A DNA stretch of 64,000 nt from a virus. The translations under genes and the position numbers were made by a program. The DNA lies in IMG/VR virus record IMGVR_UViG_3300028836_000025, positions 3,552 to 67,551 of that record, one strand, 5' to 3'. Below are positions 1 through 62,252 of the stretch, one piece after another. Each line of letters begins with the position of its first letter. The stretch's first letter is position 1. Below the pieces are notes generated by a model, which was given only the letters and a program-made list of their open reading frames with translations, did not search any database and was not told where the DNA came from.

Positions 1-46
1 AAACTTCATACGAGTAGCGAGCTACAAGTCGGGTTATGTAAGACGG

Positions 47-421
47 GTGGATAAAAACAGCTATTGCTGGCAATTAAACAAGACTAGAGAAGGTACCACG
101 ATATATAGAAATGGTATCTATCATGGTATAGAGCGTATTTTAATACCCTCTGGTGAGGATAGATTAAGATATCTGTTGAACTTTTGTATAAAGAATTACT
201 ACATAGGTCACGCTAATCTTATTCACAACGGTGAGTATATACCAAAATGGCAAGCCGCACAAACAGATGGTAAACCATGTATATGTCGAGTTACTAGTGA
301 CGCTCTGAAAGATAAGAACGTACATTTAATAATTACTACGAAAGATCGAGTTATGAACGAGTTGAAAGACAAAATGGACGAGTTTGTAGAATATGTAAAC
401 ATGCGAAATAATACAAACTAA
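47..421 (+). CDS. hypothetical early protein
   Basis: 124-aa ORF in the + strand early cluster; GTG start uncertain; no recognisable motif. Confidence 0.6.
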   Translation: MDKNSYCWQLNKTREGTTIYRNGIYHGIERILIPSGEDRLRYLLNFCIKNYYIGHANLIHNGEYIPKWQAAQTDGKPCICRVTSDALKDKNVHLIITTKDRVMNELKDKMDEFVEYVNMRNNTN

Positions 422-454
422 ATACGAACCGCCATGGATAATAATAATATGAAA
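412..454 (+). promoter_or_regulatory. conserved early intergenic motif, copy 1 (putative early promoter)
   Basis: TACAAACTAAATACGAACCGCCATGGATAATAATAATATGAAA; 36/43 identical to 1087-1129; both copies lie at gene boundaries. Confidence 0.55.
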
Positions 455-625
455 ACATTTAAACAATTAAAAGACAACAAGATAGAGCTTGGTGGCGTAA
501 TCTATCGTCCATACTTTATCGGAGATTTACCTAACAACTTCGGTTGCTTAGAATATGACGGCAATGATGGTATCCACGAGTGGTTCGGCTACAAAGGGTT
601 CTGTTATATAAAAGATAAGAGATGA
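434..625 (+). CDS. hypothetical protein
   Basis: 63-aa ORF; may start at the downstream ATG 449. Confidence 0.6.
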   Translation: MDNNNMKTFKQLKDNKIELGGVIYRPYFIGDLPNNFGCLEYDGNDGIHEWFGYKGFCYIKDKR

Positions 626-783
626 GTAGAGAAGACGTAAATAAGTATATGAAGACAGATGGACCATACTGTCCATGGGAACATGCTTATCAATTAGCGA
701 AACCACATTACACAAGAGAAGAGATCGATGAGATGCTATTTTGTGAAATAGACGAGCTATTAAATCAAGAAGATGATGACTAG
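622..783 (+). CDS. small acidic hypothetical protein (53 aa, not in ORF track)
   Basis: MSREDVNKYMKTDGPYCPWEHAYQ...NQEDDD*; ATGA overlap with the previous gene; fills the gap. Confidence 0.55.
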   Translation: MSREDVNKYMKTDGPYCPWEHAYQLAKPHYTREEIDEMLFCEIDELLNQEDDD

Positions 784-1096
784 ATACGAAGAAATAGAGT
801 TTAATAAGCTAACAGCTTTACTTAAAGAAAGCGGAATTGAATACGAAGACACCACTTGGGGTAATGATGTAACCGCATCAATATCAGTGCTTCTACCACG
901 CGTCGCTGAGTTTTTAGACGGTAGACCACATTGGCTTGAGGAAGAGTTTCAAATATACATACCTAACTCCCACGAGCATGACGCAGAAAATGAGAAGTAT
1001 AATACCTTTGCTGTGACTTTGATCGAACAGGGACACACTACAGACTTCCGAAGAGCGGAAGAGGTGATGGAGTATTTAAAAGGTTTTACAAACTGA
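773..1096 (+). CDS. hypothetical protein
   Basis: 107-aa ORF in the co-oriented cluster. Confidence 0.65.
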   Translation: MMTRYEEIEFNKLTALLKESGIEYEDTTWGNDVTASISVLLPRVAEFLDGRPHWLEEEFQIYIPNSHEHDAENEKYNTFAVTLIEQGHTTDFRRAEEVMEYLKGFTN

Positions 1097-1129
1097 ATAC
1101 GAATCACCATAGATAATATATATATGAAA
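1087..1129 (+). promoter_or_regulatory. conserved early intergenic motif, copy 2
   Basis: TACAAACTGAATACGAATCACCATAGATAATATATATATGAAA; repeat of 412-454. Confidence 0.55.
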
Positions 1130-1146
1130 CAAACAAATACAATGTA

Positions 1147-1527
1147 ATGGATAAAAAAGAATTAAAGATCAAGCTGGAAGCACTTGAAGTCAACGTCGAA
1201 GTAAGACGTGATGAACTAGGTTTTGCTATGTCAGCCGCGCAAATAGCGAGAGAAGAGTTAGCTAACTTAGGTAAACCAGTGATAACTGAAGATGTCGCAA
1301 ACCAAATAGTAAGTAAAGTATGTGAAGCTTTTCAAGAAGTATTATGTAATATTGACTCTGACAGCATAGAGATCGATTTTAGCATGGACTATGATAACCG
1401 AATTGTAGTAGATGGTATTAGTGGTTTTGATGAGGTAGATGCAGATGAAGACTCTATAATGGAAATATTGATAGACACTTTCAATATAGACCACAGTAAT
1501 AGCGAGGATGGTAACGATACAGATTAA
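1147..1527 (+). CDS. acidic hypothetical protein with N-terminal coiled coil
   Basis: 126-aa ORF, very D/E-rich. Confidence 0.7.
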   Translation: MDKKELKIKLEALEVNVEVRRDELGFAMSAAQIAREELANLGKPVITEDVANQIVSKVCEAFQEVLCNIDSDSIEIDFSMDYDNRIVVDGISGFDEVDADEDSIMEILIDTFNIDHSNSEDGNDTD

Positions 1528-1529
1528 GT

Positions 1530-1830
1530 GTTATACTTGAACTAGTAGACGTTTTCGCGAGCTAGTTAGTATAACCAAACCCGGCGGGGTATAACGCAGA
1601 CCCGGCGGGGTCACTAAGCGCAAAAAAGCTCGACGGAGCAAGGCTGTATATGCATGTGAACCCTGAAAATGGGGATAGCGGGTAGACAGTAACGGGTCGA
1701 GGTAGTCTATGCTACCGTAATGCCACCGAATAATAGGACGCAGGTAGCTCCTGTATTGAAGGCTAAGATCACGCAGAGAGTTGGGACCGCAGGCGTGCGG
1801 AGCCGGCAGTGACATGCCACAACTCTTTGC
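1530..1830 (+). ncRNA. candidate structured non-coding RNA
   Basis: GC-rich intergenic island with many hairpins: 1530-1575; ACCC-GGCG-GGGT at 1579-1590 and 1600-1611; GCTC-GACG-GAGC 1628-1639; three-way junction 1773-1830. Confidence 0.5.
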
Positions 1831-1836
1831 TTTAAA

Positions 1837-1983
1837 GGGGGTGAAAATGGTAACGCACACTGGACAGAAGACAGTATCTTCGCTGGAAGTTGGCCCGTAA
1901 ATCTACAAGATAGTAGGCCACCAACTCAAGCAAGACAGTATCTCAAAGCATTGCGTACGAGGGTTCGATTCCCTCCACCTCCA
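1837..1983 (+). ncRNA. tmRNA-like (tRNA-Ala-like domain) RNA, unusually short
   Basis: Acceptor stem GGGGGTG/CACCTCC with G3:U70, discriminator A1983, T-arm GAGGG-TTCGATT-CCCTC, unpaired D-loop with GG, P2-like CGCA/TGCG helix followed by a 3-nt linker; no anticodon arm. Confidence 0.7.
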
Positions 1984-1997
1984 CAAATTAAAATACT

Positions 1998-2285
1998 ATG
2001 AAAGATACAAATCAAGTACAAAAAGCCCTTGAATCCAAGGCAAAGAAAGAGCTGCAAAGAATTGTAGACGAGTTTGTTATATCACTAAATAAGCTAAACT
2101 CAACGTACCGCCAACCACCCTCGTACACTATGTGTGAGAGTCGTAACACTGATGCTAAGGTTTTTAGCTATATTAGACTTGGTTGCTTAGAGACTATACT
2201 TCACGACATGCTCGTTGAGGCATACTTAAGCCCTATGGTACACAAAAAGACACAAGAGCTATTAACAAAATTAGAATTACTATAA
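1998..2285 (+). CDS. hypothetical protein
   Basis: 95-aa ORF. Confidence 0.65.
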   Translation: MKDTNQVQKALESKAKKELQRIVDEFVISLNKLNSTYRQPPSYTMCESRNTDAKVFSYIRLGCLETILHDMLVEAYLSPMVHKKTQELLTKLELL

Positions 2286-2286
2286 G

Positions 2287-2685
2287 ATGGCGCTAAATTA
2301 TGATGTGACGCAAGTCAAAGATGCCTGGTTCAAGGTGGATCAGAAGATTCTAGATGAAGAAACTAGAGATAAAAGAAACTCAATATTTGGTCCAACCAGA
2401 TATAAAGAGGATGGTGTAACCTATGAAATGGAGCAACCACTACAGACAGTGATATTCTTAACTATGTCAGTAGGAATGAATAGTATCACTGAAAAAAACA
2501 AACAGAAATTCTTTAATAGAATTAAGTTTATGGAGAGTAGAACAGGTGCTGTGATGAGGTTAAATGATGAACCACATCCTTTTACTATGGATATGGTGGA
2601 ATCTTGTATTGGTTTAACAACCAATGCTAGCACTATGACTAAAGCTCAATTTCTTAAAAACCAAACTCAATATTTAGAACTATAA
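2287..2685 (+). CDS. hypothetical protein
   Basis: 132-aa ORF abutting the previous gene. Confidence 0.7.
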   Translation: MALNYDVTQVKDAWFKVDQKILDEETRDKRNSIFGPTRYKEDGVTYEMEQPLQTVIFLTMSVGMNSITEKNKQKFFNRIKFMESRTGAVMRLNDEPHPFTMDMVESCIGLTTNASTMTKAQFLKNQTQYLEL

Positions 2686-2799
2686 AGAACGAGGGTAAAT
2701 AATGGACATATAATACACTTATGTCCAATAAACAACAAAAAATGAACATGAACTCACTTATAATGTGAATTGGAATGTAATTAATAACTAAACAAATAG

Positions 2800-3036
2800 A
2801 TGAAAAACTTATTAGATAGATTAGAAGATGAGGTGTTGGCGGGATTAAAAGATAATACGAAGAAATACCCATCGAGCGTAGAAAGCGCACTAAAAGCACT
2901 TGAGGAAAACTACTGCTGGCTTAGCCTAACAGTGGGTCAGGTGCATGGGATTCTTATGTTTAGTAATATACCGTACGAGAAAAGAACAGATATGACATTT
3001 AAATTTGGAGAAAATATAATTAAAGATGAAAAATAA
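2800..3036 (+). CDS. hypothetical protein
   Basis: 78-aa ORF. Confidence 0.6.
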   Translation: MKNLLDRLEDEVLAGLKDNTKKYPSSVESALKALEENYCWLSLTVGQVHGILMFSNIPYEKRTDMTFKFGENIIKDEK

Positions 3037-3292
3037 AGTAAAACAAAACCTACCTGACTGGTTTGATGGAGAAGTTTATGAGATCGGAGACGAGGTTCGT
3101 AACCCATTTTCAGGTGACAAATACCTGTTAACTGCAGAGGAATTAAGTATGTATGATCTAATTCAGGGCGCTCAAATGGCTTTAGCTATGGGTATGCCAG
3201 TTGATCATGCGGATTGTGTTACAATTATGCAAAAGGGACTAAGCTGGTTTAGACAGAATAACCCAAAAGCATATATGATACTACTCGATTAA
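3026..3292 (+). CDS. hypothetical phage protein
   Basis: 88-aa ORF (V.NPFSG...LT..ELS.YD...G..WF...NP.AYM.LLD). Confidence 0.7.
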   Translation: MKNKVKQNLPDWFDGEVYEIGDEVRNPFSGDKYLLTAEELSMYDLIQGAQMALAMGMPVDHADCVTIMQKGLSWFRQNNPKAYMILLD

Positions 3293-3371
3293 TGATATAT
3301 CTATATACAGGATTACTGGCTTATATAGTCGTGGAACAAATAATGGAATCAAATAGAAAATTTAAAGAGTA

Positions 3372-3638
3372 ATGACAAGAAAACAAATAGAAAAATACAT
3401 TAGAAATGAGCTTGGTAGCGAACCAAGACACGACTGCCGAGCTTTAGCTGAAGCGATAAATGAGATAGCTGAAGAAGTTAATTTCGACTCCTATAGACTA
3501 ATGCAATTATTGCTAGAAAATAGACCGATAGACGCTCTATACACGCATAGCTATGGCTTTCACACCGCTCAAGGCAGATCTTTAATAGAAGGAATGCAAA
3601 ATAAATACTACAAATATGGCAACAAGAGCACTAATTAG
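3372..3638 (+). CDS. hypothetical protein
   Basis: 88-aa ORF. Confidence 0.65.
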   Translation: MTRKQIEKYIRNELGSEPRHDCRALAEAINEIAEEVNFDSYRLMQLLLENRPIDALYTHSYGFHTAQGRSLIEGMQNKYYKYGNKSTN

Positions 3639-4104
3639 AATAGTACCAAGAGAAGAGGGTGTCAGTTTTTCTGAACACCCTGAACTCGTACAAACGGAAA
3701 TATACCATCACTATGATGGTTACCCCCAATACTTGGGGCGTAAATTAGCAGAAATGCTAGGTGAGGTAAAAGTAGTGAATGGGCTAGCTTCAAGAGAATA
3801 TCTTGGAAGTAAAAACCTTACCACTATGGCAGCTAGACCTATACTCCAAGCTAACGGGATATCCTGCTTAGCCGCTAGTATAGTGTCTGAACTAAAGACA
3901 GAGTGTGGACAAGTATACCTAGAGATGCCTAACAAAGTGTTAGATGAAGCGTGGATTGATTTCACGTACTACATCTGGGTTAAAGTTGGTGAACCTATAT
4001 GGATCAGCATCTTTGATCACAGCGCGGAAGGGTGCACATTTGTAGGGTGCACCTTTGTAGGCACGTGTGATAAACTTTTAGAAAGATATAACGATGAGAC
4101 ATAA
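3616..4104 (+). CDS. hypothetical phage protein (HxDGYP motif family)
   Basis: MATRALI...IYHHYDGYP motif, common in uncharacterised phage early proteins. Confidence 0.7.
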   Translation: MATRALIRIVPREEGVSFSEHPELVQTEIYHHYDGYPQYLGRKLAEMLGEVKVVNGLASREYLGSKNLTTMAARPILQANGISCLAASIVSELKTECGQVYLEMPNKVLDEAWIDFTYYIWVKVGEPIWISIFDHSAEGCTFVGCTFVGTCDKLLERYNDET

Positions 4105-4957
4105 ACCAATGCTAGCATACCCTGTTAGCAATAAACCAATAGATTACGATAAGAAGGTTTTTATACAACCTAAACTTGATGGTGTTCGCTGTTTAATACA
4201 GTATGAGCCAGAAAAATACGGTGATGATAGCTATAGAGGTAAAGCGATGGCTTATTCACGCACAGGAAAAGAATGGAAGAATATAGATCATATACTTAAA
4301 GAGTTAGGACCTTTCTTTGAGACATACCCTGATGCGGTATTAGACGGAGAGCTTTACAACCACGATTTGCGAGATAACTTTGAGAAGATTATCTCTTGTG
4401 TGCGTAAAACTAAACCTACAGAAGAGCATAGAGCTGAATCTAAGAGATTGGTTCAGTTTCACTGTTATGACGTGCCTAGTAATCCCCACAGATTTGATGT
4501 TAGAAATGAATGGATTAAACTAAATGTACCTATTGCCGTAAGCTTTAAGATCGTAGAAACCCACGAGATTTATGCGGAGAAATACATGCTAGATTTGCAT
4601 AAGATTTTTCTAAAGAAGGGGTATGAAGGCTCTATAGTGCGTATAAACGGGGTGTATGAGAATAAAAGATCTCATAACTTAAGAAAAATTAAAGATTTCC
4701 AAGACTCAGAGGCTACTATAATAGACTGGGTGGAAGGAAAAGGTAAACGTAAAGGTACTATCGGTAAATTTGTTGGAGAAGATTCTGACGGAGTCGTATT
4801 CGGTATACCTGTAATGGATAAGTTTAAATACTTACAGGATAACTTTGATGAAATGAAAACATGGGTCGGTAGAGAGGCTACGTTCACATATTTTGAAAGA
4901 ACGAAGGCTAATAGTTACCGCTTCCCACTATTTAAAGCGATAAGAGATTATGAGTGA
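4094..4957 (+). CDS. lig: ATP-dependent DNA ligase
   Basis: Motif I QPKLDGVRC, LDGELY, FHCYDV, GYEGSIVR, KIK; C-terminal OB fold ending YRFP. Confidence 0.93.
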   Translation: MRHKPMLAYPVSNKPIDYDKKVFIQPKLDGVRCLIQYEPEKYGDDSYRGKAMAYSRTGKEWKNIDHILKELGPFFETYPDAVLDGELYNHDLRDNFEKIISCVRKTKPTEEHRAESKRLVQFHCYDVPSNPHRFDVRNEWIKLNVPIAVSFKIVETHEIYAEKYMLDLHKIFLKKGYEGSIVRINGVYENKRSHNLRKIKDFQDSEATIIDWVEGKGKRKGTIGKFVGEDSDGVVFGIPVMDKFKYLQDNFDEMKTWVGREATFTYFERTKANSYRFPLFKAIRDYE

Positions 4958-5144
4958 ATTAAAAGAAGAAGATTACAAAATTAAAGGGAGTAAAGACCTA
5001 TGGGAATGTGTACACACACTAGAAGTGGTCGCTCATTGGATGAGGGACTCTTCGTTTGATTACGATTCTAGGGATTTGAAACATTTACTTAGTGAGGCTC
5101 TTAAAACCTATAACAACTATTTATATGAGAAGACTAATATATGA
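4950..5144 (+). CDS. hypothetical protein
   Basis: 64-aa ORF overlapping the ligase stop. Confidence 0.55.
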   Translation: MSELKEEDYKIKGSKDLWECVHTLEVVAHWMRDSSFDYDSRDLKHLLSEALKTYNNYLYEKTNI

Positions 5145-5236
5145 CCTATACTACGCTGATGAGATCAGTGTAGATATAGCTATAAAGCTACTAGACAGGC
5201 TAGAGAAATCAAGAGATAAAAGACGAAGATACTAAA

Positions 5237-7090
5237 TTGGACAAAATAAGGTTCATAGGGGAGAGTAGTCACGTAAGTGATATACAAGCGGCAACTATAG
5301 AAGAATGCCTGCTATACTGTAAGAGCAAGTCTGTTCTTGGGGTAGATACAGAGACAGAGGGTCTTGATTTCACTCGTAATAAGATGATTATGCTCCAGAT
5401 AGGAGATAAAGAAAGACAGTTTGTTATAGACACCCGAGTTATAGATATAACACCACTTAAAGAGGTGTTTGAGAGTAAAGACATTATAAAAATCTTTCAC
5501 AACGCTAAGTTTGATTATAAGTTCCTGAAAAGATGGGGCGGAATATCAACTGAGAACATGTATGACACCTTTCTTGTAGAGAAGGTGTTAAATTGTGGTA
5601 AGAAAGATTTTAGGTACTCCTTAGCAGAATGTGTTAAGAGATACTTCAACGTAGAGCTAGATAAAACTATTAGAAGTGGTTTTATAGGGCTCTCTACTAA
5701 ACCCTATACGTTAGATCAAGTTGTATATGGTGCTGAGGATGTAGTATATCTGTGTGATATACGAGAAAAGCAGCTACCGACACTACACTTGTACTCAGTA
5801 CATCAAACCGCGAAGTTGGAGAACGCCGTAGTAAAAGTGTTTGCTGAGATCGAATACGAAGGGTTAAAGATTGATAGGGAAAGATGGATTGATATGGCAG
5901 AGGAAAATGTTAAACTAGCCTACGAGCAAGAGTTAAAGCTTGATCGCATGGTACTAGAGCATCCTCTTCTAACTCAGTACAACACCCCTATGCAAAGCGA
6001 TATGTTTGAGCCTATCGAAATGGCTCGGCGTACCGCTATTAACTGGAACTCTCCAGTACAGACGCTAGCTCTTTTTCGGAACCTAGTGCCTAGCTTAGAA
6101 AATGTAAACGGACAGAATCTTGGTAAATACGCCAAGTTTCATGAATTAATAGATGAATATATACAATACAAAAAGCGAACTAAACTCGCGAACGCTTATG
6201 GAATTAAATTCTTTGATTATGTAAGCGAAGATGGGAAGGTTCACACGAACTTCTCCCAGATTTTAGACACGGGTAGAGTGTCGTCTAGCAAGCCTAATAT
6301 GCAGCAGATACCAAGTAATAATATCTTTAGAAATTGCTTTATAGCAAAAGATGGCTGGGTGTTTGTATCTTCGGATTACTCCTCACAAGAGTTAAACGTG
6401 ATAGCGTACGGCAGTCAAGACCCTGTCTGGCTAGACGCCCTTGAAAGAGGGTTAGACCTCCACGGAGTATGCGCGGATCTAGTCTTTGAAGACAAGTGGA
6501 GAAATGCAGATGCCGTTGGTAAAAAGAAGTTACGTACTCAGATAAAAACCATTAACTTTGGTTTAGCTTATGGTATGGGACCCTTTAAACTCGCTGAGAC
6601 CTTATCTATATCTCAAGATGCAGCTCTAGAGCTTATAGAGAAATACTTTACAGAATTCCCTAATATCAGGGCATTCCTAGAAAAGTTAGGGCAATATGGT
6701 AAAGATAAAGGATTTATTTGTACCTTTAGACCCTTCTTAAGACGAAGATGGTTTAGTGACTGGTACCCAGGCATGCAGTATAGTAAAGGAAAAATGAGAG
6801 AGCTAGGTGCTATAGAGCGCGCTTCTAAAAACACCCCTATTCAGGGGTCAAGCGCCGATATGACTAAACTAGCTCTTATCTATGTCTATAATGAAATACA
6901 AGAATCTTGGTCTGACTCAGTAAAAATAGTTATGACTGTGCATGATCAAATAGATACTATATGCCGTGAAGACGTAACTGAAGCTTGGAAAATACGCATG
7001 ACAGAGCTTATGGAAAAAGCTGCGAAGGTTATAATACCCAATAGCCTGTTAAAGGCAGATACTAACATATCCCAAACATGGGAAAAATAA
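5237..7090 (+). CDS. polA: family A DNA polymerase (3'-5' exonuclease + polymerase, no 5' nuclease)
   Basis: ExoI DTETEG, ExoII HNAKFD, ExoIII YGAED; TGRVSSSKPNMQQIP; motif A DYSSQEL; motif B KTINFGLAYG; NTPIQGSSAD; motif C VHDQ. Confidence 0.95.
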   Translation: MDKIRFIGESSHVSDIQAATIEECLLYCKSKSVLGVDTETEGLDFTRNKMIMLQIGDKERQFVIDTRVIDITPLKEVFESKDIIKIFHNAKFDYKFLKRWGGISTENMYDTFLVEKVLNCGKKDFRYSLAECVKRYFNVELDKTIRSGFIGLSTKPYTLDQVVYGAEDVVYLCDIREKQLPTLHLYSVHQTAKLENAVVKVFAEIEYEGLKIDRERWIDMAEENVKLAYEQELKLDRMVLEHPLLTQYNTPMQSDMFEPIEMARRTAINWNSPVQTLALFRNLVPSLENVNGQNLGKYAKFHELIDEYIQYKKRTKLANAYGIKFFDYVSEDGKVHTNFSQILDTGRVSSSKPNMQQIPSNNIFRNCFIAKDGWVFVSSDYSSQELNVIAYGSQDPVWLDALERGLDLHGVCADLVFEDKWRNADAVGKKKLRTQIKTINFGLAYGMGPFKLAETLSISQDAALELIEKYFTEFPNIRAFLEKLGQYGKDKGFICTFRPFLRRRWFSDWYPGMQYSKGKMRELGAIERASKNTPIQGSSADMTKLALIYVYNEIQESWSDSVKIVMTVHDQIDTICREDVTEAWKIRMTELMEKAAKVIIPNSLLKADTNISQTWEK

Positions 7091-23547: not shown

Positions 23548-24690
23548 TTAGTATAACACTGTTATCGTTCCGTTAAACTCAAATACACTATCTGATACAG
23601 CACTATGGGCTGTAATCGTATATACATAAACACCAGTTGCCACATCAGCCTCCCACTCATCAAGAGATGAAGCGCTTATCCAAACAAGTCCGCCCCATCT
23701 GTTATATATTCTCACCTCCCATTGATCCCAACAGGCTCCATCTGCGGTAACCTGCCAAGTATCATTCCACCCATCCCCATTGGGGGTTACAGCGTTGGGA
23801 GCAAATATCGATGTCTCATCACAAGAAAAACCTAAGTCACACGCCTCACCAGTCTCGCAGTCTACATATACAGTCTCAACCACATACTCTGTCACTGTGT
23901 CTGTTTCGTAGATGTAAACATTCTCATACACTACGATCTCCACGTATACAGTGTCTGTGCTGTATACCATTATATCTATCGTGTCTGTTACATATATATA
24001 CTCATATACAGTATCTGGCGGAAGAGTTACATACGTGGTATCATAGACATACTCTATTGTGTTTATATATTCTATGATAGTATCATATGATACTACCGTA
24101 TCAGTCTCATAGATATAAATAGTATCACATGGGCATAACCCATCGACTGGGAGAATGTTATCCCAGGGGTTATCATCAGGATAATCTTGAGAAGTACCTA
24201 TAGGGTTATACCAATCTGGATTTAAAGCCTGTGGCCCGTTAGAATAATTAATCTGCCAGATGAATACCTCGGCCCCCTCACAAAACGTCCCGTCATTATA
24301 CCACCCCATCCATCTCTCTAATATGGTTAAGGGATTACTAGTATCACTAACGTTCGCGTTAAGAGCCTCCGCCATGTTAAAGTTTAGCGTGTCCCCACTG
24401 TAAGCGTAGTTCCCTAGGTTACCATTGAAATGCTGCTCTTGGAAATCTAAGAATGAGTGTAATGGGAAACTCGCGAACTCATTAGTGGCAAGGGTGTCTA
24501 CTCCGTTAGATATCCCAAGATCTATATGGTCTATATATGTAGTGTCCACACCGTTACCGCACCCATTAGAATTATGGACTACGATTTGAATGTCTCCCGT
24601 CTCAAAATTCACATTAGTTAACTCAACATCACACTGCGCGGCGGCTGTGGTTATGATGAGCCAAGAAATAAGTGTAAAAATTAATCGCAT
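23548..24690 (-). CDS. Sec-exported protein with T9SS type B (gliding-motility-associated, CHU_C-like) C-terminal sorting domain
   Basis: Start ATG 24690; signal peptide MRLIFTLISWLIITTAAA|Q; DT(V/I)Y repeat stalk; C-terminal FAPNAVTPNGDGWNDTW...IYNRWG.LV...GVYVY...G.ITV. Confidence 0.85.
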   Translation of the reverse strand: MRLIFTLISWLIITTAAAQCDVELTNVNFETGDIQIVVHNSNGCGNGVDTTYIDHIDLGISNGVDTLATNEFASFPLHSFLDFQEQHFNGNLGNYAYSGDTLNFNMAEALNANVSDTSNPLTILERWMGWYNDGTFCEGAEVFIWQINYSNGPQALNPDWYNPIGTSQDYPDDNPWDNILPVDGLCPCDTIYIYETDTVVSYDTIIEYINTIEYVYDTTYVTLPPDTVYEYIYVTDTIDIMVYSTDTVYVEIVVYENVYIYETDTVTEYVVETVYVDCETGEACDLGFSCDETSIFAPNAVTPNGDGWNDTWQVTADGACWDQWEVRIYNRWGGLVWISASSLDEWEADVATGVYVYTITAHSAVSDSVFEFNGTITVLY

Positions 24691-25049
24691 AACGTTCCGT
24701 AATCTCCTAAAAATAATAACAAGTCTTGAGACCCAACCTCTCCGTCCCCATCTAAATCTGCGGGGCAAGGGGGTTGTATACAAGATGGGTAAGCTGGGTG
24801 TTCTGTTTGTAACGGGTACACAAACCCATCTCCAGATAAAATAAAAGTAGTTCCTATATCGGCGCATAATATAATAGTGTATCCACCAGTTGGTAAACCA
24901 AACCAGTGGGTCAACCCCTCGCAGTCTTGATACTGAAACGAGGTCCACTTAGAAGCGCCCACAGAGCTGAACACATGTTGATTACATTGTGCGGCTAAAC
25001 TAGAATATATGATCACACATAACAGTGATATAATTAAGTGCTTCAGCAT
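24681..25049 (-). CDS. Sec-exported Cys-rich protein with C-terminal dockerin/EF-hand-like motif
   Basis: Signal peptide ...SSLAA|Q; C-terminal CPADLDGDGEVGSQDLLLFLGDYGTLC. Confidence 0.75.
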   Translation of the reverse strand: MLKHLIISLLCVIIYSSLAAQCNQHVFSSVGASKWTSFQYQDCEGLTHWFGLPTGGYTIILCADIGTTFILSGDGFVYPLQTEHPAYPSCIQPPCPADLDGDGEVGSQDLLLFLGDYGTLCD

Positions 25050-27542: not shown

Positions 27543-30500
27543 TTAATCATGGTAGTAACATAAACCAGAAGAACTAGATGTTTTCATCTTACACCTTTTA
27601 CCGTCTTTCTTAACGTGACTACATTGTGTTTTCTTACCCGTGGTGTTTTGTTTTACTTTTTGGTGTATTGTGCAGAACGTCCCGTTACCCACGGGTTTTA
27701 AAGAGCATCTCTCTCCAGCTTTATTTACAGCGGCGCACGTAGTCTTTTTACCTTTCTTTCTTTCCTGCTTTTGATCTTTAATGAAACCCTCTTCTATAGC
27801 CGCTTCTTCAGCTTCTTTTTCAATTGCCCTTTCAATTTTCTTTTTTTCTTTTCTCTCTTCTTTTTCTACTGCTTTAATTTCTTTAACCTCCCCTTTTGCT
27901 GCAACGACATCTTGGTTTTTAATACCAAAACTCCACTTGCTCCACCCTAAGAGCATAGCCACTCTTTTCCATGTCTCGTGTTCCGCGTCTAATGACTCTG
28001 ATATGTTCTGAACTTTATTATACACCCTACTTAGCGGTAGGTTTGTCACTGCCTCGGTTCCGCTGAAGGCAGCATCGTATATAGGGTTATCTATATCTGC
28101 CTTGCTCATATGGTCGATTACATCTTTATTGTATTCCCATGTTTTTAAACCGCTGTATATTTTTCTAGCTTTAATACCTATTGGCGGAGACATGTTGAGA
28201 CCCTCTATCACTACGTTGCCCCAGTCTGGGTCTGTGTAGAAAACCCCATCATCCATTTTCTCGCTCTCCTTCATGAACTTCAAGATAACGTTTTTAATCG
28301 TTGCCACACCTACTCCAGCGATACCTGACCCACGTAGTATAGTGTCTATCATACCGTTAATAACCTTCTCTTTTTTCTTATCTGTGATCTGATCCTCTTC
28401 GTCGTCGCTAAATAACGCCGCGAACAAAGCTTGCTGCAACCCGTAGAAAATCATATTTTGAATAGTCCCGTAGTACACTATCCTAGATATATTAGCTTTC
28501 GTATCTCCCCTACCGTTAACTAAATCTAAAGTGGCTTTCTTAATTAACCTATTGTACTGCATAGGCGTGTTCTGGAAAGCAAGTATAAACTTACCAAGAG
28601 GTGATGCTTGCTGCTGAGATATTTTATCTTCTCTAGTAGACTGCTGAGTTTCCTCCGCTATCTCCATCATGTCCTCAAACGCTTTTGTCTCGGCTTCGGC
28701 CTGCATCATACCCTCTTTTAGGTATGTCTTAATCCTATTTCTATATAAGGTCGCACCGCCAGTAGCGATAGCAAAACTATCTGCCACCTGAGTTGGCGTA
28801 AAACCAAGTTGTAGTAAGTACGCAGTAGCGGCTTTGAATTTATTATTCGAGTCTTTTACTTGAGCCAATAGCTCTGCGGCATTAACATCTGTCTGTATAC
28901 CCGATCGTCTCTGTTTTAAAAACGGAGAGTTCATTATCATTGCCACGTCCTTCCAGTACTGAGGCTGGTTGGCAAACGCTCCAGCTGCTTTAAGCATATT
29001 GTTATCGCTCCAGTTAACGAAGTTAACATTAGAGATCATCTGCAACATCGCAGATCTAGCGTTCAAGAACATCGTTGTACCTATAGAACCATGTATCCAG
29101 TTGGTAAAGTTATTCACTATCCTTCCACCCTTCGATCTGGTACCGCCATTCTCCATCCGCCACAAGCTATCCTCTAAAGCTTCTCTAAAATTAGAACCGT
29201 ATACAGCTTCAATTTTATTCATGTTAGCTTCAGGGAATATAATATTCTTATTATCCACCCATTGTTGTAGGTGTGTACCTCTAGCTGCGTCTAATGCTTC
29301 TTTTAAATCTAAAGCCATATTCCCTCCAGTCCAATGAGCACCGGGGTCGACCATTCCACCTGCGGCATCGCTAACAGAATTAACACCTTGGGCGAACGCT
29401 AACGCTTGTGCGTTAGATTCAACAGCGTTTACTAACGCGGTGGCGTCCGCTTTGGATAGTCCAGGTATATCAAGACCCGCTTTGGCCCAGTTGTATACTC
29501 TTATAGCGTCTTCATACGCATACTCTGTACCGGGCACTTTCTTATTAAGCTTCTTCCTTACGTCAGGCATAGCCTTCCTAAGCTTTTTCATATCGCTAGC
29601 AGCTTGTTGCTGCATTATCTTATGCCGCCTCATACCTTTTGAAAACGGGTCAAATAGGTTTTCTTTAAACCAAGCGTGATGCTTATCCCCTTGTTTCCCT
29701 TTACCCATGAAAGCGTACATAAGCCCCGCGAAGTCATCGGCTGATGGCGGAACAAAGAACTTAAATTTACCTTTGTTTTTACCACGTTGTCTAGCTTTTG
29801 CCGCCGAGAACTTTTTATGTCTACCTACACCTTTAGTTTGTTCTAATATAATATCTAAATCAAGAGCTCCCTCATCTATGATATCGGACATCTTCTTCCC
29901 TCCAGTCTGGCTGAACTTGATCTTAGCCTGTTGGACTTTGCCTTTAACGTCAAAGCGGTTAAGCATAGCTTTAACTGGTCTATTAACGTAGTAAGATGGC
30001 CCCCTCTTTATCTGATAATCGGGTTTTGATATTATAAAAGTTCCACTTTTATACTTTGTGTCCTTTCCATAATATTTTAACTCTGCGCGACTCAAGCCTA
30101 CTTCATCCCACTCCCATCCTAACTTACTAGCCCAGAACTTTGTTAACCTACTATAAAGTCTAGTTCTACTTGTTTCTTTTGAAGCAAATGTAATAGCATC
30201 AACTTCGTTATTCTTTATAAAATCAAAAACACCATTCGACACAATACTTATAACTTCATGCGCACGACCTGTGTCCAGGATTTCCATTCCTGTCTTGCTG
30301 CTTGGTTTAGCACCTTCTAGTAAAGCGAACTCCAAATACCACTGACCTCCCCCGCCCGGTTCTTTTAGCGTTATGCGGTAGTGGTTATCGCCCACCTTAA
30401 AGTTAGCGTGATTATACGTCCCGAAATTTGTTTCCGTCCACTTCAAGTCACGCTTAGTGTTCATACTAAACTTGATCTTAGCCTGTTGGACTTTGTTCTT

Positions 30501-33500
30501 AACCTCGAGTTTATTTAAAGTCGCTTTGACAGCTTGAACATTTTGTATAGCGTCGTCCGCGAAATAGAAATCGTTGTACCCTTCTCCAACCTTCTCTGCT
30601 ATCCAGTTAGCTTTTGCCGATGCTTCTGATCTACCTAAACCCACGATGTTCTTAAGCGGTATATTTAAACCCTGCGCGTCTAAGAACTGTTTGATAGCCT
30701 TAGCAGACTCAGGGGCTCTAGCAGTTAGAATGAACATGTCATCTGCTCCAAACTTGCCATAAAGCTTCATGGCTTTATTAAACAGCGGGGCTGTCTCACC
30801 TTTAACAACTTTGTTAAACTCCGAGAAGTCGAACTTAACACCTTGAGCTAATAGATCTCCACCTTGCTTTGCGAACTCCTCTGCGTTTAATTTACCTTTA
30901 GTTCCATCAGGAAGAGTGTAAAGCACATTTGATTTAGTTGTAGCCAACGTATCGTCGAAGTCTAGTACTGTAATACCCTTACTAGATTTAGAAAACATCA
31001 CGTGAACTGGGTCACCTTCCATGTCAGTGAACGTCCGAGCTCTATCTGCATACTGCATAGGGAGTAAACCTTGCCCATCACCGTAATCAACTCGTGATCC
31101 AACGAATGCCCCATTGTTATACTCCCTAACCGTAATTAGAGAACTTGCAAAATGATCTCCGGTGTTGACGAGCTGTTGTGGACTGAGATGCTCCTCTGTA
31201 ATACCATGAAGTTCACCATCCTTGTTATAACGCTCAACAGATTCTAGGAACAATACAGGTTTCCGCTTCCTAATCCCAAGATCTGAAAGCGCCTCCTTAA
31301 AAGTATCACCGACGGAGCTTAAGCCATCTGGAGTATAAGTACTCCACACCTCTATCTTGCCGCTCTCTACACTACCTCTAGTGGCACCATAAACAGTATC
31401 TAACTTTTTACCCGTCTTCTCATCAAATGAGCCCCGCACATTTCTACCTTGACTATCAACGTGATCGTTCCCAGGTATCTCGTTGTATTTTACGTTATCC
31501 CTACTCCAAAATTCTACATCCCCAGCGTCCGAGAAACCTCCTTCCCTGCTCTCGGTTTTCATAGCTAATAACTTACCATCTTTAAATATGATCTGCTTAT
31601 TCCCATACTGGTCCCAGTACTCCTCAGCGGAGTCTGTTAGTTTACCATCGGTAGATTGTACTATACACCATGGGTTAGACTTCTTACCGAAGTGCTGGTT
31701 AACCTGATCACGCACAGCAAGTAGCCCGGGGGCGGGCGGTGTACGAACATATGGGGCGCCGGGGATTATTACGTCAGAGCGCGTGTCATCTATATCATAT
31801 ATAACAATGCCATTCTTTAACTCTTGTTTGTTAGTGAACGCCGCGACCTCATCAGGGTTAGTTGTCTTCTTTCCATCAACCTCCTCGCTATACTTCTCGA
31901 TTATCTCGTTTGGATTTTTAAAAGAGAATGGGTCAAGTTTTTTGGCTTTAGCTAACCTCTCTGCTTCAATAACTTTAAACCCGTCTTCAGGCAAGCGAAG
32001 TTTATTATGAACCATATAGTGAAGAGCTAGTTTCTCAAACTTGCTTTTATGCTTTGCAGCATATATAGGACTCTCCATATCTAGGTGGAACGAAGGACTA
32101 TCTAACCACTTGAATAAATCATCAACAAGTCCTTTCGCGATCTTCTTGTTCCAAACGTTATGCTTGAGCCCTATGCGGTTATTTATCAACCTCTGCTCGT
32201 ACTCAGCCCTATGGCTTTTAGAAAACCTTACATTAGAGTACCCGTCAGGGTTTATACCAGATGTAGCTGTTTTTATATCAGCTTCAGCTATGCTCTTTAT
32301 AATTTTCCCTCTGCCAGATCTAGACGCTTTAAAAGCTTGGTCCATGACTTTAGAGTCTTTAGATCTTACAGCTATATCACGTATACTAAACTCTGTATTA
32401 GCAGCAGCCTCACCATACACCTTGCCTTTATCTTTTGGGTTAAGGCTCTCTATAGCATACAGGTCGGGGTGACCAAAAGTGGTCATGTTATAATATCGCT
32501 GAGTTGAATTGTTTCCAATGATATATCCTATAGGCATCACCTTAGTTAATTTGACCTCACCAAAGATGTTGTCCATTGTAATAGGTATAACAGCCACCGT
32601 GTACTCTTTAAACAGTGCATTAAGATCAACGTTACCATCATTCATATAAGCGTCAGTCAATCGCATAATCATATAGTTAGTAGGTATCATATGCTCATAC
32701 CTAAACTTACCTTTATACTTCTTCCCGATCTTGTCTTTGAATATGTAACCTAGGTTAGCGGCCCTCTTTAGTGGCGACTGCATGTTGCTAGCCATACCCA
32801 TCATCACCATAGCAAAATCCTCCTTATCTAGTGCTCCATCTTTAATTTGATCCTTATAATGTTGAGCTATGTCTCTTGTAACTTGTTCAGACACCGCTGC
32901 CTGCTTCTTCCTTCCAGCGTAGTCTCTATCAACCATCGCCGCCTTAGAAGTTTCAGCTAAAAGACTAGTGTTTATTTTTTTACCATCAATAGTTTGTGTC
33001 TTTTTAAGATTCCCCGCTTCAGTAAGCTGCACATCATCCCCGAAAATCTCTTTTAAAACGTTTTTATTCCAATCTTTCTTATCTTCAAAAAACTGGTATC
33101 TTTGAGCTCCATCACCCTTAACGCCAACCTCTACAGCGACTCCATCTTTAACCACAAAGTTTCCCCTACCAATCTTAGCGCTCGTTGTGTACATCCCACT
33201 TGCGTGTATAAGCATCATCAATGCTTTTTCTTTACCATATTTTTTAACCCACTTTTCACCAAGAGTAACGATCTCAACGCGACCAGTGTTTATCTTGTCT
33301 ACGTTGTCAAAGCTTTCAGCGAAGGACAAGGTTTTACCATCCCCGCCTTTTAAATCTAAAAACTCTGCTAGGTTTAGAGCTAGCTCCGCTGCCTTTACGT
33401 TATCAGTTAAATATTCGTTTAAAGTTTGTTCGGGTTTTGTATTAAGATTAGCGTGCCGTTTGTTTATCGCACCATACCTATTAACGATCTTAGCTATGTC

Positions 33501-36500
33501 TTTTCCAAGAGCGGTAACTTTACTTCTTGGATAGTGTTTACCATACACGTCTCTAACAACTTGTATTACAGCGCTCTCATCGTTAGGGTTAACTTTCTTA
33601 AGAGCCTTACTTAAAACCGGAAGGTTGTTATAAAAAGTCTTTCTCTCAAGCGGTTGAAGTTTTCTTACGGACTTACTAAACTTAACACCTGGATCCCTAT
33701 CTATTTGTTTGCCTATGATAGACACTTCGTTTTCAGCTTGAACTTGTCCAGTTAAATCTAGTATGTCTGATCTACGGTTAGATACCTCAGGAGTTTGAAT
33801 CGTCTCCATAGTGGCATCGAACCCAAGTTCAACACCCATCTCCATAGCTAACTTATCTTTTCTAGTACCCAACGTAGACGCACCTACCTTATACCCAAGT
33901 ACATCTCCCATGTCCTGACCTCTAAAGAATGCCATAACTTTCTTAGAACCAGGATATGGTAACTTAGTAATTAGAGTTGGACCAGATAGTCTGTTAGTAT
34001 TTTTAGGTAGTAAACCCTCGCTAACTAACTTATCAACCTCCGTGGACTTAGTAATCCTTTCAGACCTAGTAAATATTCTATTTTCAGGAGCTATATTACG
34101 CTCCATCTGGAGCAGAGTTTCTTTTGGGAGAAACTTAAACACAATAGGAAAGTTCTTAGTTAAAAACTCATTATAGGTTTCACTTTTACCTATCATATCT
34201 TGGATAGGTTTTTTGAGTTCAGTTCTAAAGGCTTTTTGTAGTGCTGCTTTAAACTTCTTAGAGCTTACCTCAGGAAGCTTAGTACCGAATGTCTTCGCGA
34301 CAGCTTTACGAACCTTGTCCATCATAGATTCTTCTAAACCTAATTCCGTTCTAAGTCCCGAATACTGATCTGACTCAGACTTGCCCTGTTCAACTAGTTT
34401 AGTACGCCTAGCTTGAGCAGCCATAGACATGTCCTGCTCTTCAAATGATGTTACATCGGCGTCAGTCTCTGCTGCTATTTGAATTACCGGTGCTCCTTCA
34501 GACGTCTTAGCATCGATGTCTTTCGACCCTCTCATAGCTTCGTCAACTTTATACTCCGAGTTGTACACGTTACCAGCTTTGTTACCTATCTGGCTATTTA
34601 TATACGCGAATAAGTTATCGTTCTGCTCCGGCTTAAACCTCTTTATGTGTGGTGTCATTTCAGAGTAAACCTTCTCTACGAAATCTCTTGGCACGGGTTT
34701 GACTTTGTACTTAGAAGCTATCAACGCGTCAAAGTAACCTTGCTCCTTTATCTCTTTTATAGCCGCATCTGATCCACCTCTTCTCCAAGATTTATTTGTG
34801 TGGCTAGTTCCTAGTTCTTTAACGTTTTTAACAGCCGCTTTCTTCTGGTCGGAAGACATAGATGTTTTTGTATCATCTACTTCAACCTTACCTTTAGTTG
34901 CCTTTGCTATCCCACTACTCAAAGCACCTTTATGTATACTCTTGTTATACTCTTTTAGAAAGCTGTACACATCTTTACCAGTGTCAAACTTTATCTGCTT
35001 AAATCCAGCAGCCCTAAGTATCGGTTTAATCACATTGCCAATCCTTTCAAACACACTCTCATTATATGTTATATCCCCATTTTGTATAGCATCCGACGCT
35101 AGAGTTATCCACTCATCAGGATTAGCCTTCATATACTCTGGGGTGTAGTTTTCACTAGCTCTTTGCTCCACCGTTGACCATTGACTTCCTATCTCTGTTT
35201 TAAGTTCACTAATAACATTCTCAGATATATCCCCAGCTTTCATAGCCTTTCTAAGTATACCGTGTAACAACTCGTGATTACCGACATTCACGGCTCCAGT
35301 AGCTCTTGCAACAGTTTTGTTTATGATGATCTTATCTCCTTTGATAAACCCGTCTGAAGCAGCGGCTTCCTCTCCATATCGCGCTTTAATTTGATCGATA
35401 GTCAAACTGTCGTCAACCTCTAAACCATATAAAACACTATGTTTCTTTGCAAATTCTAGATTACTTTTGAATACTTTATCAGCAACACTCTCTTTAACAG
35501 CTTCAGCTGACTTCTTCCTAGCTTTAACGTCTTTAGTTCTACCGTCAACTTTCGCGTACGTATTAATTATATCAGCAATCTGTGTTTCCACGCCCTCTAA
35601 CTTAACGTCTGCGCCTGGAACAGCAAATACACCTTTCTTTTTAGTATCACTCTCGGCTTTAGCTCGCTTCTTTTCAAGTTCTACTAAAGCTTTCCTATCG
35701 TTAATGTCATTTACCTTCGCGTCAATCTGGGTTTCTAATATCGCGTCGTTTTGTTTGGACTGCACAAAGCTGTTTAAGTTAAGATCATTCTCGACCTCGA
35801 TGTTTATTTTGGCTAAATCTTCAGGCGCTGTATTTTTATTGTTCACAATATCTTCTACAGTTTTTCTACTAACGACTTCACCGTTTATTTTATATTTAGG
35901 TGTTTGTCCTTTTAAAGATTTATACAGTATATCAGAAACATTAACAATACCTTTAGCTTCACCAATAGCCTCTAAAGTAGCGTCACCTAAATCAATTTCT
36001 TGACCCGCGGCGACTTGTCCTCCAACCTCACCCACAAAACCCCCACCCATCTCAATACTTGTTGTAGCCCCCGCTACTTTAACAGCGGTTCTTTTACCAG
36101 TAGCTTTACCAAGTCTAACAATAGAACTACCTACACCCCTAGATAAACCCATAGTTAAACCTTCAATCGCCCCTATAGTTAAACCCCTAGCTAATGAAGC
36201 AGATTTTATTCTGTCTATAGCGTCTTCATCTTCTAAGATCGCCCTTACATTCTCTTTATTAAAATCTAAATCTCCTAACTCTTCTTTTAATAAGTCGGTT
36301 AAAGTTAAACCAGTCTCCATAGCCCCCACTAAACCCGCGGTAGCTCCAGCTAAACCCCCTGTGATAGCCCCAGCCCCAGCTCCAAATACAGCACCAGGCC
36401 CAGCCCAAGCAGTTGCTAGAGCCCCAGCCCCAGCCCCAACCGTAGCGCCACCCGCAGCGACGCCTGCGGCACTCGCTATTGTTTCCGGGGCTGTTAAAGA

Positions 36501-60443: not shown

Positions 60444-60697
60444 TCCACTAAAACTATATCTCTAGCGCGTATAACGTAGTACATGGTATCTTTCCATGTT
60501 ATCCCGTGTCCAGCGTGTTTATCGTAGAACACCGTGTCCTTCGCTTTAACCCCCTCTACTAGGTTTCCAACCGAGATTATAGTAGCCTTTACATACCTAT
60601 TGTCACTATCTAGAGCTTCAGTGAGAATTAACCCACCAATTTTCTTTGGCCCTATTTTCTCTTTATCTACTATTACGTAATCGTTAATGGCTTTCAT
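60440..60697 (-). CDS. groES: co-chaperonin GroES
   Basis: MKAINDYVIV...GGLIL...IISVG...VK.KD.V.Y...YYVIR.RDIV; next to groEL. Confidence 0.88.
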   Translation of the reverse strand: MKAINDYVIVDKEKIGPKKIGGLILTEALDSDNRYVKATIISVGNLVEGVKAKDTVFYDKHAGHGITWKDTMYYVIRARDIVLVE

Positions 60698-62252
60698 CTG
60701 CTCTAGCGTTTGAGATTACACAATCAGCGGATATGATGGTTGATACTACAGAGCAAGCATTCTTCAATGCAGACTTGGTTACAAGTACTGGGTCCACTAT
60801 CCCAGCCTTAACCATATTAACGCTTTCACCCGTTATAACGTCTATACCCTCTCCTTCTACTTCGCTGTAGTTTGGAAACTCTATGCCCGCGTTATCGAGT
60901 ATAACCTCAAATGGTGCCTGTATAGCTTTAAGCAGTATCTCTTCCCCCACACTTGTGGGTTCGATTTTTTGGGCGGCATCCATTAAAGCAACGCCACCTC
61001 CAGATACCACACCTTCTTTTAAAGCGGCTTTAGTAGCGTATATAGCATCTTCAGCTCTATCTTTCTTTTCTTTAAGCTCGACTTTAGAATCAGCTCCAAC
61101 TCGTACAATCCCTACAGACCCAGATAAAGACGCGAGTCTTTGCTCTAACTTCTTCTTTATAAATCCGTTTTTCTCCGCGGCAATCTTTTTAGTTACTTCC
61201 GCGATTCTTTCGGTTATCTCCTCAGTAATCTCCTCTAAGGTTATTACTGTAGAACTATCATCTGTAACAACACTTTCGGCTTCCCCTAAGTGATCTATAC
61301 TTATAAGATCTAAATCATCCCCCAACTCCTCGTTTATAACAGTGGCCCCAGTGAGGATAGCTAGATCTTCTGTAGCATCCTTCTTCGTGGGGCCAAATCC
61401 TGGTAGGTCTATAATATTTATCTTTATATTCCCTTTTACCTTATTCATAAGTAAAGCACTCTTCACTTGTTGAGATACAGGTGCTATAATTAAAAGGGCT
61501 CTACCTTTCTTTATAACGTGTTCTAATACCGTCTGTATCTTCCGTACGTTAGGGATTTCGCTAGATACGATCAGGATATACGGATCCTCTAGTTCAGAGA
61601 CATGTTTCTCTGTGTTAGTCACCCAATGGGGAGATGTTAGTCCACAATCTATCTGTATACCGTCAACTAGCTCTACGTATGTCTCCTCGGTCTCACTCTC
61701 TTCCATAAGCACCACCCCATCTTTCCCGACCTTTTGATATGCTTCTGATATAACAGCACCAAGAGCTTTATCGTTATTACAAGAAATAGCACTGACACTC
61801 TCAAGCATATCACCGACAACTTCGATAGCAGAGGCTTCGAGGTACGCATTGACCTTTTGTAGTCCCGAATTAATACCTTCTTTAATATCTCGAATTGAAT
61901 TGCCACTATACTGTTCTGAATTTACTGTTTTAAGTAGCGATTCAGCAAGTACAGTCGCGGTAGTAGTTCCGTCTCCTGCTTCTTTTACCGTGTTACTGGC
62001 AGCCTCTTTTATTAAGGTTGCACCTATGTTTTCGACCGGATCATACAAGACTACGCTTTGAGCAACGGTTACACCGTCTTTTGTTATGACCGGCTTTCCA
62101 CGCGCGTCTTCGTATATCACACACTTCCCAGAAGCGCCTAATGTAGATTTCACGGCTTTCGCTAGTTTTTCTACTCCGGTTATGATTTTGCGTTTTGCGT
62201 CATCTCCGAAGTCTAGTGATTTTATTAACTCACTAGGTAAGTTATATTCCAT
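60684..62252 (-). CDS. groEL: chaperonin GroEL
   Basis: TLG..G, ITKDGVTVA, AGDGTTTATVLA, PGFG, EKKDR.EDA..AT.AA..EG.V.GGG, GIVDP. Confidence 0.96.
   Translation of the reverse strand: MEYNLPSELIKSLDFGDDAKRKIITGVEKLAKAVKSTLGASGKCVIYEDARGKPVITKDGVTVAQSVVLYDPVENIGATLIKEAASNTVKEAGDGTTTATVLAESLLKTVNSEQYSGNSIRDIKEGINSGLQKVNAYLEASAIEVVGDMLESVSAISCNNDKALGAVISEAYQKVGKDGVVLMEESETEETYVELVDGIQIDCGLTSPHWVTNTEKHVSELEDPYILIVSSEIPNVRKIQTVLEHVIKKGRALLIIAPVSQQVKSALLMNKVKGNIKINIIDLPGFGPTKKDATEDLAILTGATVINEELGDDLDLISIDHLGEAESVVTDDSSTVITLEEITEEITERIAEVTKKIAAEKNGFIKKKLEQRLASLSGSVGIVRVGADSKVELKEKKDRAEDAIYATKAALKEGVVSGGGVALMDAAQKIEPTSVGEEILLKAIQAPFEVILDNAGIEFPNYSEVEGEGIDVITGESVNMVKAGIVDPVLVTKSALKNACSVVSTIISADCVISNARADESH

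Follow-up and report, generated by a model that had tools for sequence, protein, structure and literature searches.

A conserved structured RNA encoded immediately upstream of a tRNA-like element in uncultured marine phages

The stretch of DNA analysed here (the window) comprises 64,000 nucleotides (nt), positions 3,552 to 67,551 of IMG/VR virus record IMGVR_UViG_3300028836_000025, and makes up most of this 67.5-kb record. Near its left end, an open reading frame (ORF) at 1147-1527 stops at 1527 and the next plus-strand ORF begins at 1998, leaving a non-coding gap of about 470 nt. The gap holds a GC-rich island (1528-1836) followed by an element resembling a transfer RNA (tRNA; 1837-1986). The island encodes, on the plus strand, a structured RNA some 300 nt in length that belongs to a family not in Rfam. 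The GC fraction in 150-nt windows was 0.49-0.55 across 1501-1875 and 0.31-0.44, or about 0.35, on either side. On the plus strand the island folded with -109.8 kcal/mol (z = -3.15), and none of 100 shuffled sequences was as stable; the minus strand gave -91.4 kcal/mol (z = -1.59). A 10-nt hairpin word was present in four copies (up to one mismatch) against 0.65 expected, a number reached by none of 100 shuffles. A first-pass annotation, made from the letters of the stretch, had proposed a GC-rich structured non-coding island at this place; base composition, ORF gap and plus-strand fold bear this out. The hairpins it listed were found where it had put them (1530-1575, 1579, 1600, 1628, and an 11-base-pair (bp) helix 1773-1783/1820-1830 with inner hairpins), as was the end of the island 6 nt before the tRNA-like element (helix end 1830, element start 1837).

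The island was compared with the 4227 covariance models of Rfam 15 and gave no match at E values up to 10. The whole window gave none at gathering scores, and the islands of 15 relatives (see below) none at E values up to 1. ARAGORN called no tRNA or transfer-messenger RNA (tmRNA) in the window, and the Rfam tRNA model had no match in 1300-2200 at E values up to 10. The family had been noted as unrecognised in the first-pass annotation, and the covariance-model search of the island and the 15 relatives agrees. Literature searches returned no description of it; the motif may stand unnamed among the 8,495 candidate structured RNAs predicted in a survey of IMG/VR (PMC10690425, of which a part was available). 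We conclude that the RNA family is previously undescribed.

As judged by shared 31-letter words, the stretch is partly represented in runs of at least 13 studies of marine, hydrothermal-vent and subsurface samples. Contigs of four public sequencing runs were aligned to the window, among them a DNA run (X11) and two RNA sequencing (RNA-seq) libraries (X16, X17). Summed contig depth in X11 was 98 and 70 over 1740-1811 and 15-18 on the flanks, which points to a core that is common to several genomes. RNA runs X15 and X18-X20 also shared small numbers of words with the window. Homologues were retrieved by exact 20/21-mers from the core, which yielded one further IMG/VR contig (L193) and 82 metagenome stretches, with 80 loci returned. 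These relatives collapse to 64 distinct RNAs. Their order of parts was: stop codon of a small ORF, hairpin H1, AAGG linker, hairpin domain P2, three-way-junction core (P3-P6), 3' domain (P7-P9), leader and tRNA-like element. In most relatives the RNA begins 3-10 nt past the stop codon of a syntenic ORF, and family members are about 160-310 nt long, those of the L248 type (about 160 nt) being the shortest.

Base-pair changes were counted in a MAFFT alignment of the 64 distinct RNAs (A3), using a structure named by us (H1 and P3-P7, 36 pairs). H1 was misaligned by MAFFT in 7 rows, which were counted as gaps. Of all cells, 96.7% were paired, against 89.3% in shuffles and 31-47% when partners were slid. 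Thirteen of the 36 pairs were changed on both sides, in 209 cells, and the covariation score of 0.246 was reached by none of 500 shuffles. The fold is conserved and its helices covary, the outcome that the first-pass annotation had named as a check on collected homologues. Kinship among sequences can by itself yield scores above those of shuffles; here the control with slid partners and the variety of stems argue against that explanation. In P7, 8 of 11 pairs were changed on both sides, and in P3 one pair was changed on both sides and two on one side only. P4 showed a G-C to U-A swap, misplaced by MAFFT, in four sequences (L247, L248, L259 and L270) of alignment A4, described below. In P6, as placed by the alignment fold (1740-1744/1750-1754), G-U was replaced by A-U in five sequences. 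A long-range pairing of 1599-1604 with 1693-1698, which the first-pass annotation had offered as an alternative, was not upheld: the relatives, most of which lack the 1599 segment, pair 1694-1698 with 1767-1772 instead, and base changes support this pairing.

The strand of the product could be read from the same alignment. Conserved pairs held 233 G-U cells and 7 A-C cells, a ratio expected of a plus-strand RNA and of neither a DNA hairpin nor a minus-strand product. Natural variants in the aligned contigs likewise kept their pairs on the plus strand only: 1557 G>A in X11 converts U-G to U-A and retains the pair with U1552, 1579 A>G in X11 gives G-U with U1590, and 1788 C>T, present in both X11 and X16, gives U-G with G1799.

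H1 (1628-1639) has a stem of 4 bp capped by a GACG tetraloop, and the AAGG linker (1640-1643) comes directly after it. H1 was present in 77 of 82 sources, the remaining five being too short upstream to judge; it occurred in ten stem combinations, with all four pairs changed on both sides and 99.6% of cells paired. A pseudoknot between the P6 loop and a segment just upstream of H1 was considered and rejected, as the upstream word was found in 52 of 76 loci and is not universal. P2 (1644-1689) is a variable, swappable hairpin domain with 34 distinct versions of 13-96 nt; in 33 of these the ends are complementary over 4-11 pairs, and the stems differ widely in sequence. The commonest P2 module was also found within the 5' extension of L227, L237 and L266, so these modules move. 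The core (85 nt, 1690-1772) consists of helices P3 (1694-1698/1767-1772), P4 (1701-1705/1712-1716), P5 (1722-1724/1761-1763) and P6 (1740-1744/1750-1754); a model of it (R1) scored 105.4 bits at 1690-1774. The 3' domain (1773-1830) is closed by the 11-bp P7 (1773-1783/1820-1830), which encloses the GGCG-capped hairpin P8 (1787-1800) and P9 (1805-1818), a hairpin with a 6-nt loop. It has 42 distinct versions; among those listed, the first inner hairpin is capped by GACG, GGCG or GACGA, and the second is usually present.

Upstream of H1 the window carries additional hairpins on the plus strand. The first is a long hairpin at 1530-1575, seen in the fold prediction and in relatives. It also occurs 5' of H1 in L210 and L207, with compensatory changes, and at the P2 position in L271. 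It is followed by twin hairpins with GGCG tetraloops and an identical 12-nt sequence (1579-1590 and 1600-1611, the second extending to 1599-1612). One GGCG-capped hairpin with the same linker precedes H1 in 14 of 76 loci, several with a compensated stem variant, and two such hairpins were found in the window, L196 and L207 only. The segment 1530-1612 is an accessory, optional 5' module.

Conservation of the core was scored on 39 distinct cores (alignment A4) outside the 20-mer search word, over 67 columns. Mean identity was 90.5% (minimum 77.6%), and 40 of the 67 columns were invariant. The protein of the upstream ORF, detected in 59 of 67 loci, was 29-72% identical. That the core is far better conserved than the neighbouring protein points to a slowly evolving partner, and the three-way-junction core 1690-1772, which the first-pass annotation had not picked out, is the conserved part of the RNA and probably its working part.

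The constant partner of the RNA lies outside the island. In the window, 1837-1986 (plus strand) matched the Rfam tmRNA model with 41.1 bits (E = 8e-15), below the gathering score of 47; this was the sole real match in 1300-2200 at E values up to 10. The match is confined to the tRNA-like ends, which are 101 nt apart where about 326 nt would be usual. The resulting tRNA-like domain is 147 nt long and has G3:U70, and no tag frame was found in it. A 12-nt direct repeat lies inside the domain (1868-1879 and 1932-1943), and in one X11 DNA contig 110 nt of the interior are missing, so that 1846 is followed directly by 1957. The 8-mer 1684-1691 of the island recurs at 1869 and 1933 and the 9-mer at 1664 recurs at 1842. 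An old duplication of island and tRNA-like domain, suggested by these repeats, gave an alignment not above chance, and for a tandem duplication with a period of about 178 nt, suggested by short repeats, the alignment score was equalled by 60 of 500 shuffles.

Downstream sequence was sufficient in 70 loci, of which 69 were analysed, and a tRNA-like element followed the island in all 69. The leader between P7 and the element (1831-1836 in the window) was 5-7 nt long in all 66 loci scored and near-identical in 62. In 51 of 69 loci the partner was a GGGGRUG-type tRNA-like domain of 68-179 nt with G3:U70. In 15 (L200, L201, L232, L248 and others) it was an AAGAGUA-type acceptor/T-arm minihelix of 40-98 nt lacking G3:U70, the mark for alanine, in one a tRNA-Asp directly after the leader, and in two an extra GACG-capped hairpin module followed by a tRNA-like element. 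Four relatives' short tRNA-like domains passed the Rfam tmRNA gathering score (top 51.1 bits). An extra GACG-loop hairpin module between island and tRNA-like element was seen in L219, L241 and L261, and in L241 the tRNA-like domain is followed by another tRNA-like element, which has an acceptor and a T-arm to itself. RNase P recognises the tRNA-like acceptor/T-arm shape. All partners share this shape, and we infer that an RNase P cut, presumably after 1836, sets the 3' end of the island RNA. The first-pass annotation had suggested that the RNA is co-transcribed with the tRNA-like RNA and processed from it; the physical coupling holds throughout, and co-transcription with processing at the element would be its natural reading.

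True tRNAs were found after the RNA cluster in a minority of loci (tRNA-Asp in five, tRNA-Ser in three, tRNA-Leu in one), most loci having none. In L215, L217, L218, L234 and L236 this is a tRNA-Asp(GUC) with an unusual T-loop, whose anticodon is complementary to the GAC of the GACG loops. A link between the two was considered and rejected, as other loci have tRNA-Ser, tRNA-Leu or none; the complementarity may be coincidence.

GNCG tetraloops on stems of at least 4 bp occurred in 64 of 64 RNAs, with a mean of 2.09 per RNA against 0.08 in shuffles. Two were present in 47 RNAs, three in 10, four in the window, and one together with a GACGA loop in 6. At least two GNCG-capped hairpins were thus present in 58 of 64 RNAs, and GACG (112 in total) outnumbered GGCG (22). 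In the leader RNA of murine leukaemia virus, a gammaretrovirus, contacts between the loops of two GACG-capped stem-loops (SL-C and SL-D) stabilise the dimeric genome, and comparable loops are at work in other retroviruses (PMC5874298, PMC516450, as far as these texts were available). The reference list of the former names, by title, a kissing complex with only two G.C pairs (Kim and Tinoco 2000). The RNAs described here likewise carry at least two stem-loops with the same tetraloop, a likeness of motif and not of descent, but some of their loops are GGCG or GACGA. Both GACG and GGCG keep the palindromic CG, for which loop-loop contacts may be preferred over a protein sponge. Since the CG is palindromic and invariant, covariation cannot speak to kissing. 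By analogy with the retroviral loops, RNA-RNA kissing would be at least as good a reading of the GACG loops as protein binding.

The nearest known RNAs in kind and context are, by analogy, GOLLD and ROOL. The available part of bioRxiv 10.1101/2024.12.08.627333 describes these as ornate RNAs of phages and prophages, of open function and often near tRNA islands. According to the same text, one part of GOLLD is universally conserved and another less so, tRNAs are in some cases covalently linked to it, and both GOLLD and ROOL assemble into RNA-only cages. The present RNA is likewise phage-encoded, with an elaborate fold, an invariant core, a swappable periphery and an attached tRNA-like element, and true tRNAs stand beside it in several loci. 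The Rfam models of GOLLD and ROOL gave no match in the window or in the 15 relatives. GOLLD and ROOL are about 580-800 nt long or more, whereas this RNA has about 160-310 nt and was found in one phage lineage only. The downstream neighbour has a counterpart in mycobacteriophage DS6A, whose tmRNA is likewise reduced to little beyond the tRNA-like domain; a similar molecule strongly inhibits tmRNA, perhaps by titrating SmpB (PMC4131195, PMC11915505, available in part). The available text of these papers mentions no conserved structured RNA upstream of the DS6A gene. Here the upstream RNA is better conserved than the tRNA-like domain, which a minihelix without G3:U70 or a tRNA can replace. No SmpB gene was found in the phage record.

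Two RNA-seq libraries from different studies contained contigs of the family. One X16 contig of 241 nt spans 1592-1639 and 1690-1817 and has 65 other nt where the window has 1640-1689 (P2), and X17 has contigs on 1688-1745 and 1716-1801. Neither library covered the flanking ORFs; the flanks of relatives may be too diverged to align, and this was not used as evidence. Small early ORFs of the window are closely preceded by two copies of a 23-nt intergenic motif (421-443 and 1096-1118; 0.05 expected), and many relatives have a similar word between the tRNA-like element and the ORF that comes after it. The motif may be an early promoter or translation signal that brackets a unit of ORF, RNA and tRNA-like element.

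We favour, at about even chances of its being right, a stable trans-acting RNA that is freed by RNase P, carries a core for a host component and bears GNCG kissing loops. The RNA would be transcribed together with the upstream small ORF in an early multi-gene transcript. RNase P would cut after 1836, at the 5' end of the tRNA-like element, and give the RNA a fixed 3' end. The released RNA would be stable and work in trans. Its core would bind a slowly evolving component of the host; our guess is the translation or ribosome-rescue machinery, since the RNA is usually accompanied by a tmRNA mimic that lacks a tag, and such mimics may titrate SmpB. The GNCG loops would kiss through their CG, either within the molecule (H1 with P8) or between copies, as the retroviral loops suggest. 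In a bolder version, to which we give a slim chance, the RNA is a self-assembling scaffold, a small cousin of GOLLD and ROOL. Its CG loops would join copies into a defined oligomer and its core would dock on host ribosomes or rescue factors; together with the tmRNA mimic, which comes from the same transcript, it would form a two-part phage device that blocks or redirects trans-translation in infected cells.

Several observations weigh against the trans-acting RNA. The RNA-seq contigs of X16 and X17 may derive from DNA and give no transcript ends, strand or abundance. A scan for sigma-70-type promoters gave sites not above chance and none adjoining the island, no terminator was found adjoining it, and a -7 box of Bacteroidota type was absent from the plus strand of 1010-3000, without enrichment. 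The lack of a promoter or terminator beside the island fits a multi-gene transcript that is then processed. The AAGAGUA-type partners without G3:U70 (15 loci) weaken a specific link to trans-translation. Lastly, all homologues share an exact 20-mer of the core, so that the family as sampled is shallow, with its deeper relatives unsampled, and P5 and most of P6 lie outside the reach of covariation, the search word being invariant by construction.

An RNA that acts in cis, as part of a messenger, would account for some of these observations. It could be a 3' untranslated region that shields the message of the upstream ORF from 3' exonucleases, or an organiser of transcript processing with the tRNA-like element as its cut site. 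The short distance to the stop codon of the syntenic ORF in most relatives, the detection of this ORF in 59 of 67 loci and the absence of a promoter or terminator of the RNA's own all suit this idea, which we hold to be unlikely, and the least so among the alternatives. A core with 40 of 67 columns invariant beside proteins of 29-72% identity is over-constrained for a simple stabiliser, and the ornate modular build and the constant GACG loops suggest a specific partner. Such a partner could be a protein. The first-pass annotation had proposed a multivalent protein-binding or sponge RNA, in which each GNCG hairpin would bind one copy of a phage or host protein, on the strength of four similar tetraloops. 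Four are indeed present in the window, and the same loop recurs in every member; the typical member has two, and the twin hairpins belong to the optional 5' module. That GACGA replaces a GNRA-type loop in one P2 sub-hairpin of some relatives also suits a loop fold read by a protein. Two loops, the number in 47 of 64 members, would be a small number for a sponge; none of the neighbouring proteins could be named as RNA-binding, and the best conserved part is the core and not the hairpins. Sponges of the CsrB/RsmZ type have many GGA-containing loops; the likeness is that of one RNA with a repeated hairpin loop motif, but the present family usually has just two loops, of GNCG sequence, and its conserved part is the junction core. 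A GGAG loop was seen only in L196 and L207. A sponge appears a shade less probable to us than a cis-acting element, and the proposal of the first-pass annotation was partly right, in that an unrecognised structured RNA is coupled to a tRNA-like gene.

The core itself might be catalytic or ligand-sensing, either an aptamer or a new ribozyme that cleaves itself or takes part in processing; its three-way junction, whose junction nucleotides hardly vary while the peripheral helices do, would be typical of such RNAs. This is improbable given that no Rfam ribozyme or riboswitch matched even at E values up to 10, that the core is followed by no expression platform, the next element being the tRNA-like gene, and that nothing indicates a cleavage site. 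More improbable still is a split tmRNA, in which the island would replace the missing pseudoknot and messenger part and stay bound to the tRNA-like domain. Its appeal lies in the tmRNA-type partner of 51 of 69 loci and in a locus (L120, polymerase identity 35%) with a full-length tmRNA a few kb upstream of the polymerase gene. The tmRNA models (RF00023, RF04321) aligned to 1837-1986 alone and left the island, which lies wholly 5' of the acceptor stem, unaligned; RNase P would therefore detach it. The gene order is neither that of a standard nor that of a permuted tmRNA, no tag frame is conserved, as a variable junction at about 1728-1733 shifts the frame among cores, and where the partner is a minihelix of 40 nt or an ordinary tRNA, it leaves no interior for such pairing. 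Hardly credible, finally, is the absence of any RNA gene, its place being taken by a coding antisense ORF (1531-1860) or by an element that acts as DNA, such as an origin, a packaging site or repeats that bind protein. The hairpin repeats do lie near downstream ligase, DNA polymerase and primase-helicase genes, and the minus strand has an open frame of 109 codons. The excess of G-U over A-C cells (233 against 7) fits a plus-strand RNA and not a cruciform or a minus-strand product. Minus-strand frames are broken in L193, the relatives show module swaps and indels of any length, and no Pfam-type or PHROG match was obtained, so that conservation of the antisense ORF as coding sequence, which the first-pass annotation had named as a refutation, was not observed.

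Phage RNAs of the GOLLD/ROOL type beside tRNA genes are an open problem, and the RNA described here is a compact, covariation-supported case with a core small enough for structure work. Since it always precedes a tRNA-like element, in most cases a tmRNA mimic that lacks a tag, a link between infection and ribosome rescue becomes directly testable. If the RNase P reading is true, the locus would be a natural example of a non-tRNA RNA whose 3' end is set under tRNA guidance, and if kissing is true, it would hold perhaps the first GACG kissing loops outside retroviruses.

So far, the known range of the family is one lineage of uncultured marine phages. The exact 20-mer was absent from 185,579 species genomes, core model R1 matched the window alone over 95 sources (914 kb), and a blastn search of GenBank phages with the region returned only the T-arm of phage tmRNAs. 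ORFs 1147-1527 and 2287-2685, used as protein anchors, had no match in IMG/VR. The DNA polymerase as anchor gave 22 IMG/VR loci, the 20 closest 71-75% identical and the other two 47% and 35%. None of the 22 has the island or a common flanking gene; they bear tRNA-Arg, tRNA-Met or tRNA-Thr, or a full tmRNA (L120), in its stead. The 20 closest (L099-L118) have none of the 12 small ORFs upstream of the polymerase in window 1-7090 in common, and the early region is strongly mosaic. A pattern of the twin hairpins in IMG/VR returned 96 stretches, all chance matches in GC-rich contigs with no further similarity. A strict pattern of the short tmRNA-like element had no match in IMG/VR, and a loose one gave 71, mostly adjacent tRNAs and none with the island. 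A different short tmRNA-like gene, about 140 nt long and with an acceptor stem of 7 bp, lies in two unrelated viral contigs (L135 and L137); the core model found no island upstream of it.

Among the replication genes of the phage are those for a ligase, a family A DNA polymerase, a primase-helicase and a ribonucleotide reductase. In GenBank phages the polymerase found its best matches at only 27-32% identity, some of them in crAss-like phages. The proteins neighbouring the island matched no family or named cluster in Pfam, PHROG and Atlas clusters. A 466-amino-acid ORF on the minus strand (23548-24948) carries at its C terminus a type IX secretion sorting domain (CHU_C, E = 4.6e-15). The type IX secretion sorting signal is particular to Bacteroidota, and this domain suggests a host from that phylum; the phages of the family probably infect Bacteroidota. 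Also on the minus strand are a 3252-amino-acid ORF (27543-37301) and a GroEL-type chaperonin gene (60684-62252; Cpn60_TCP1, E = 4e-51).

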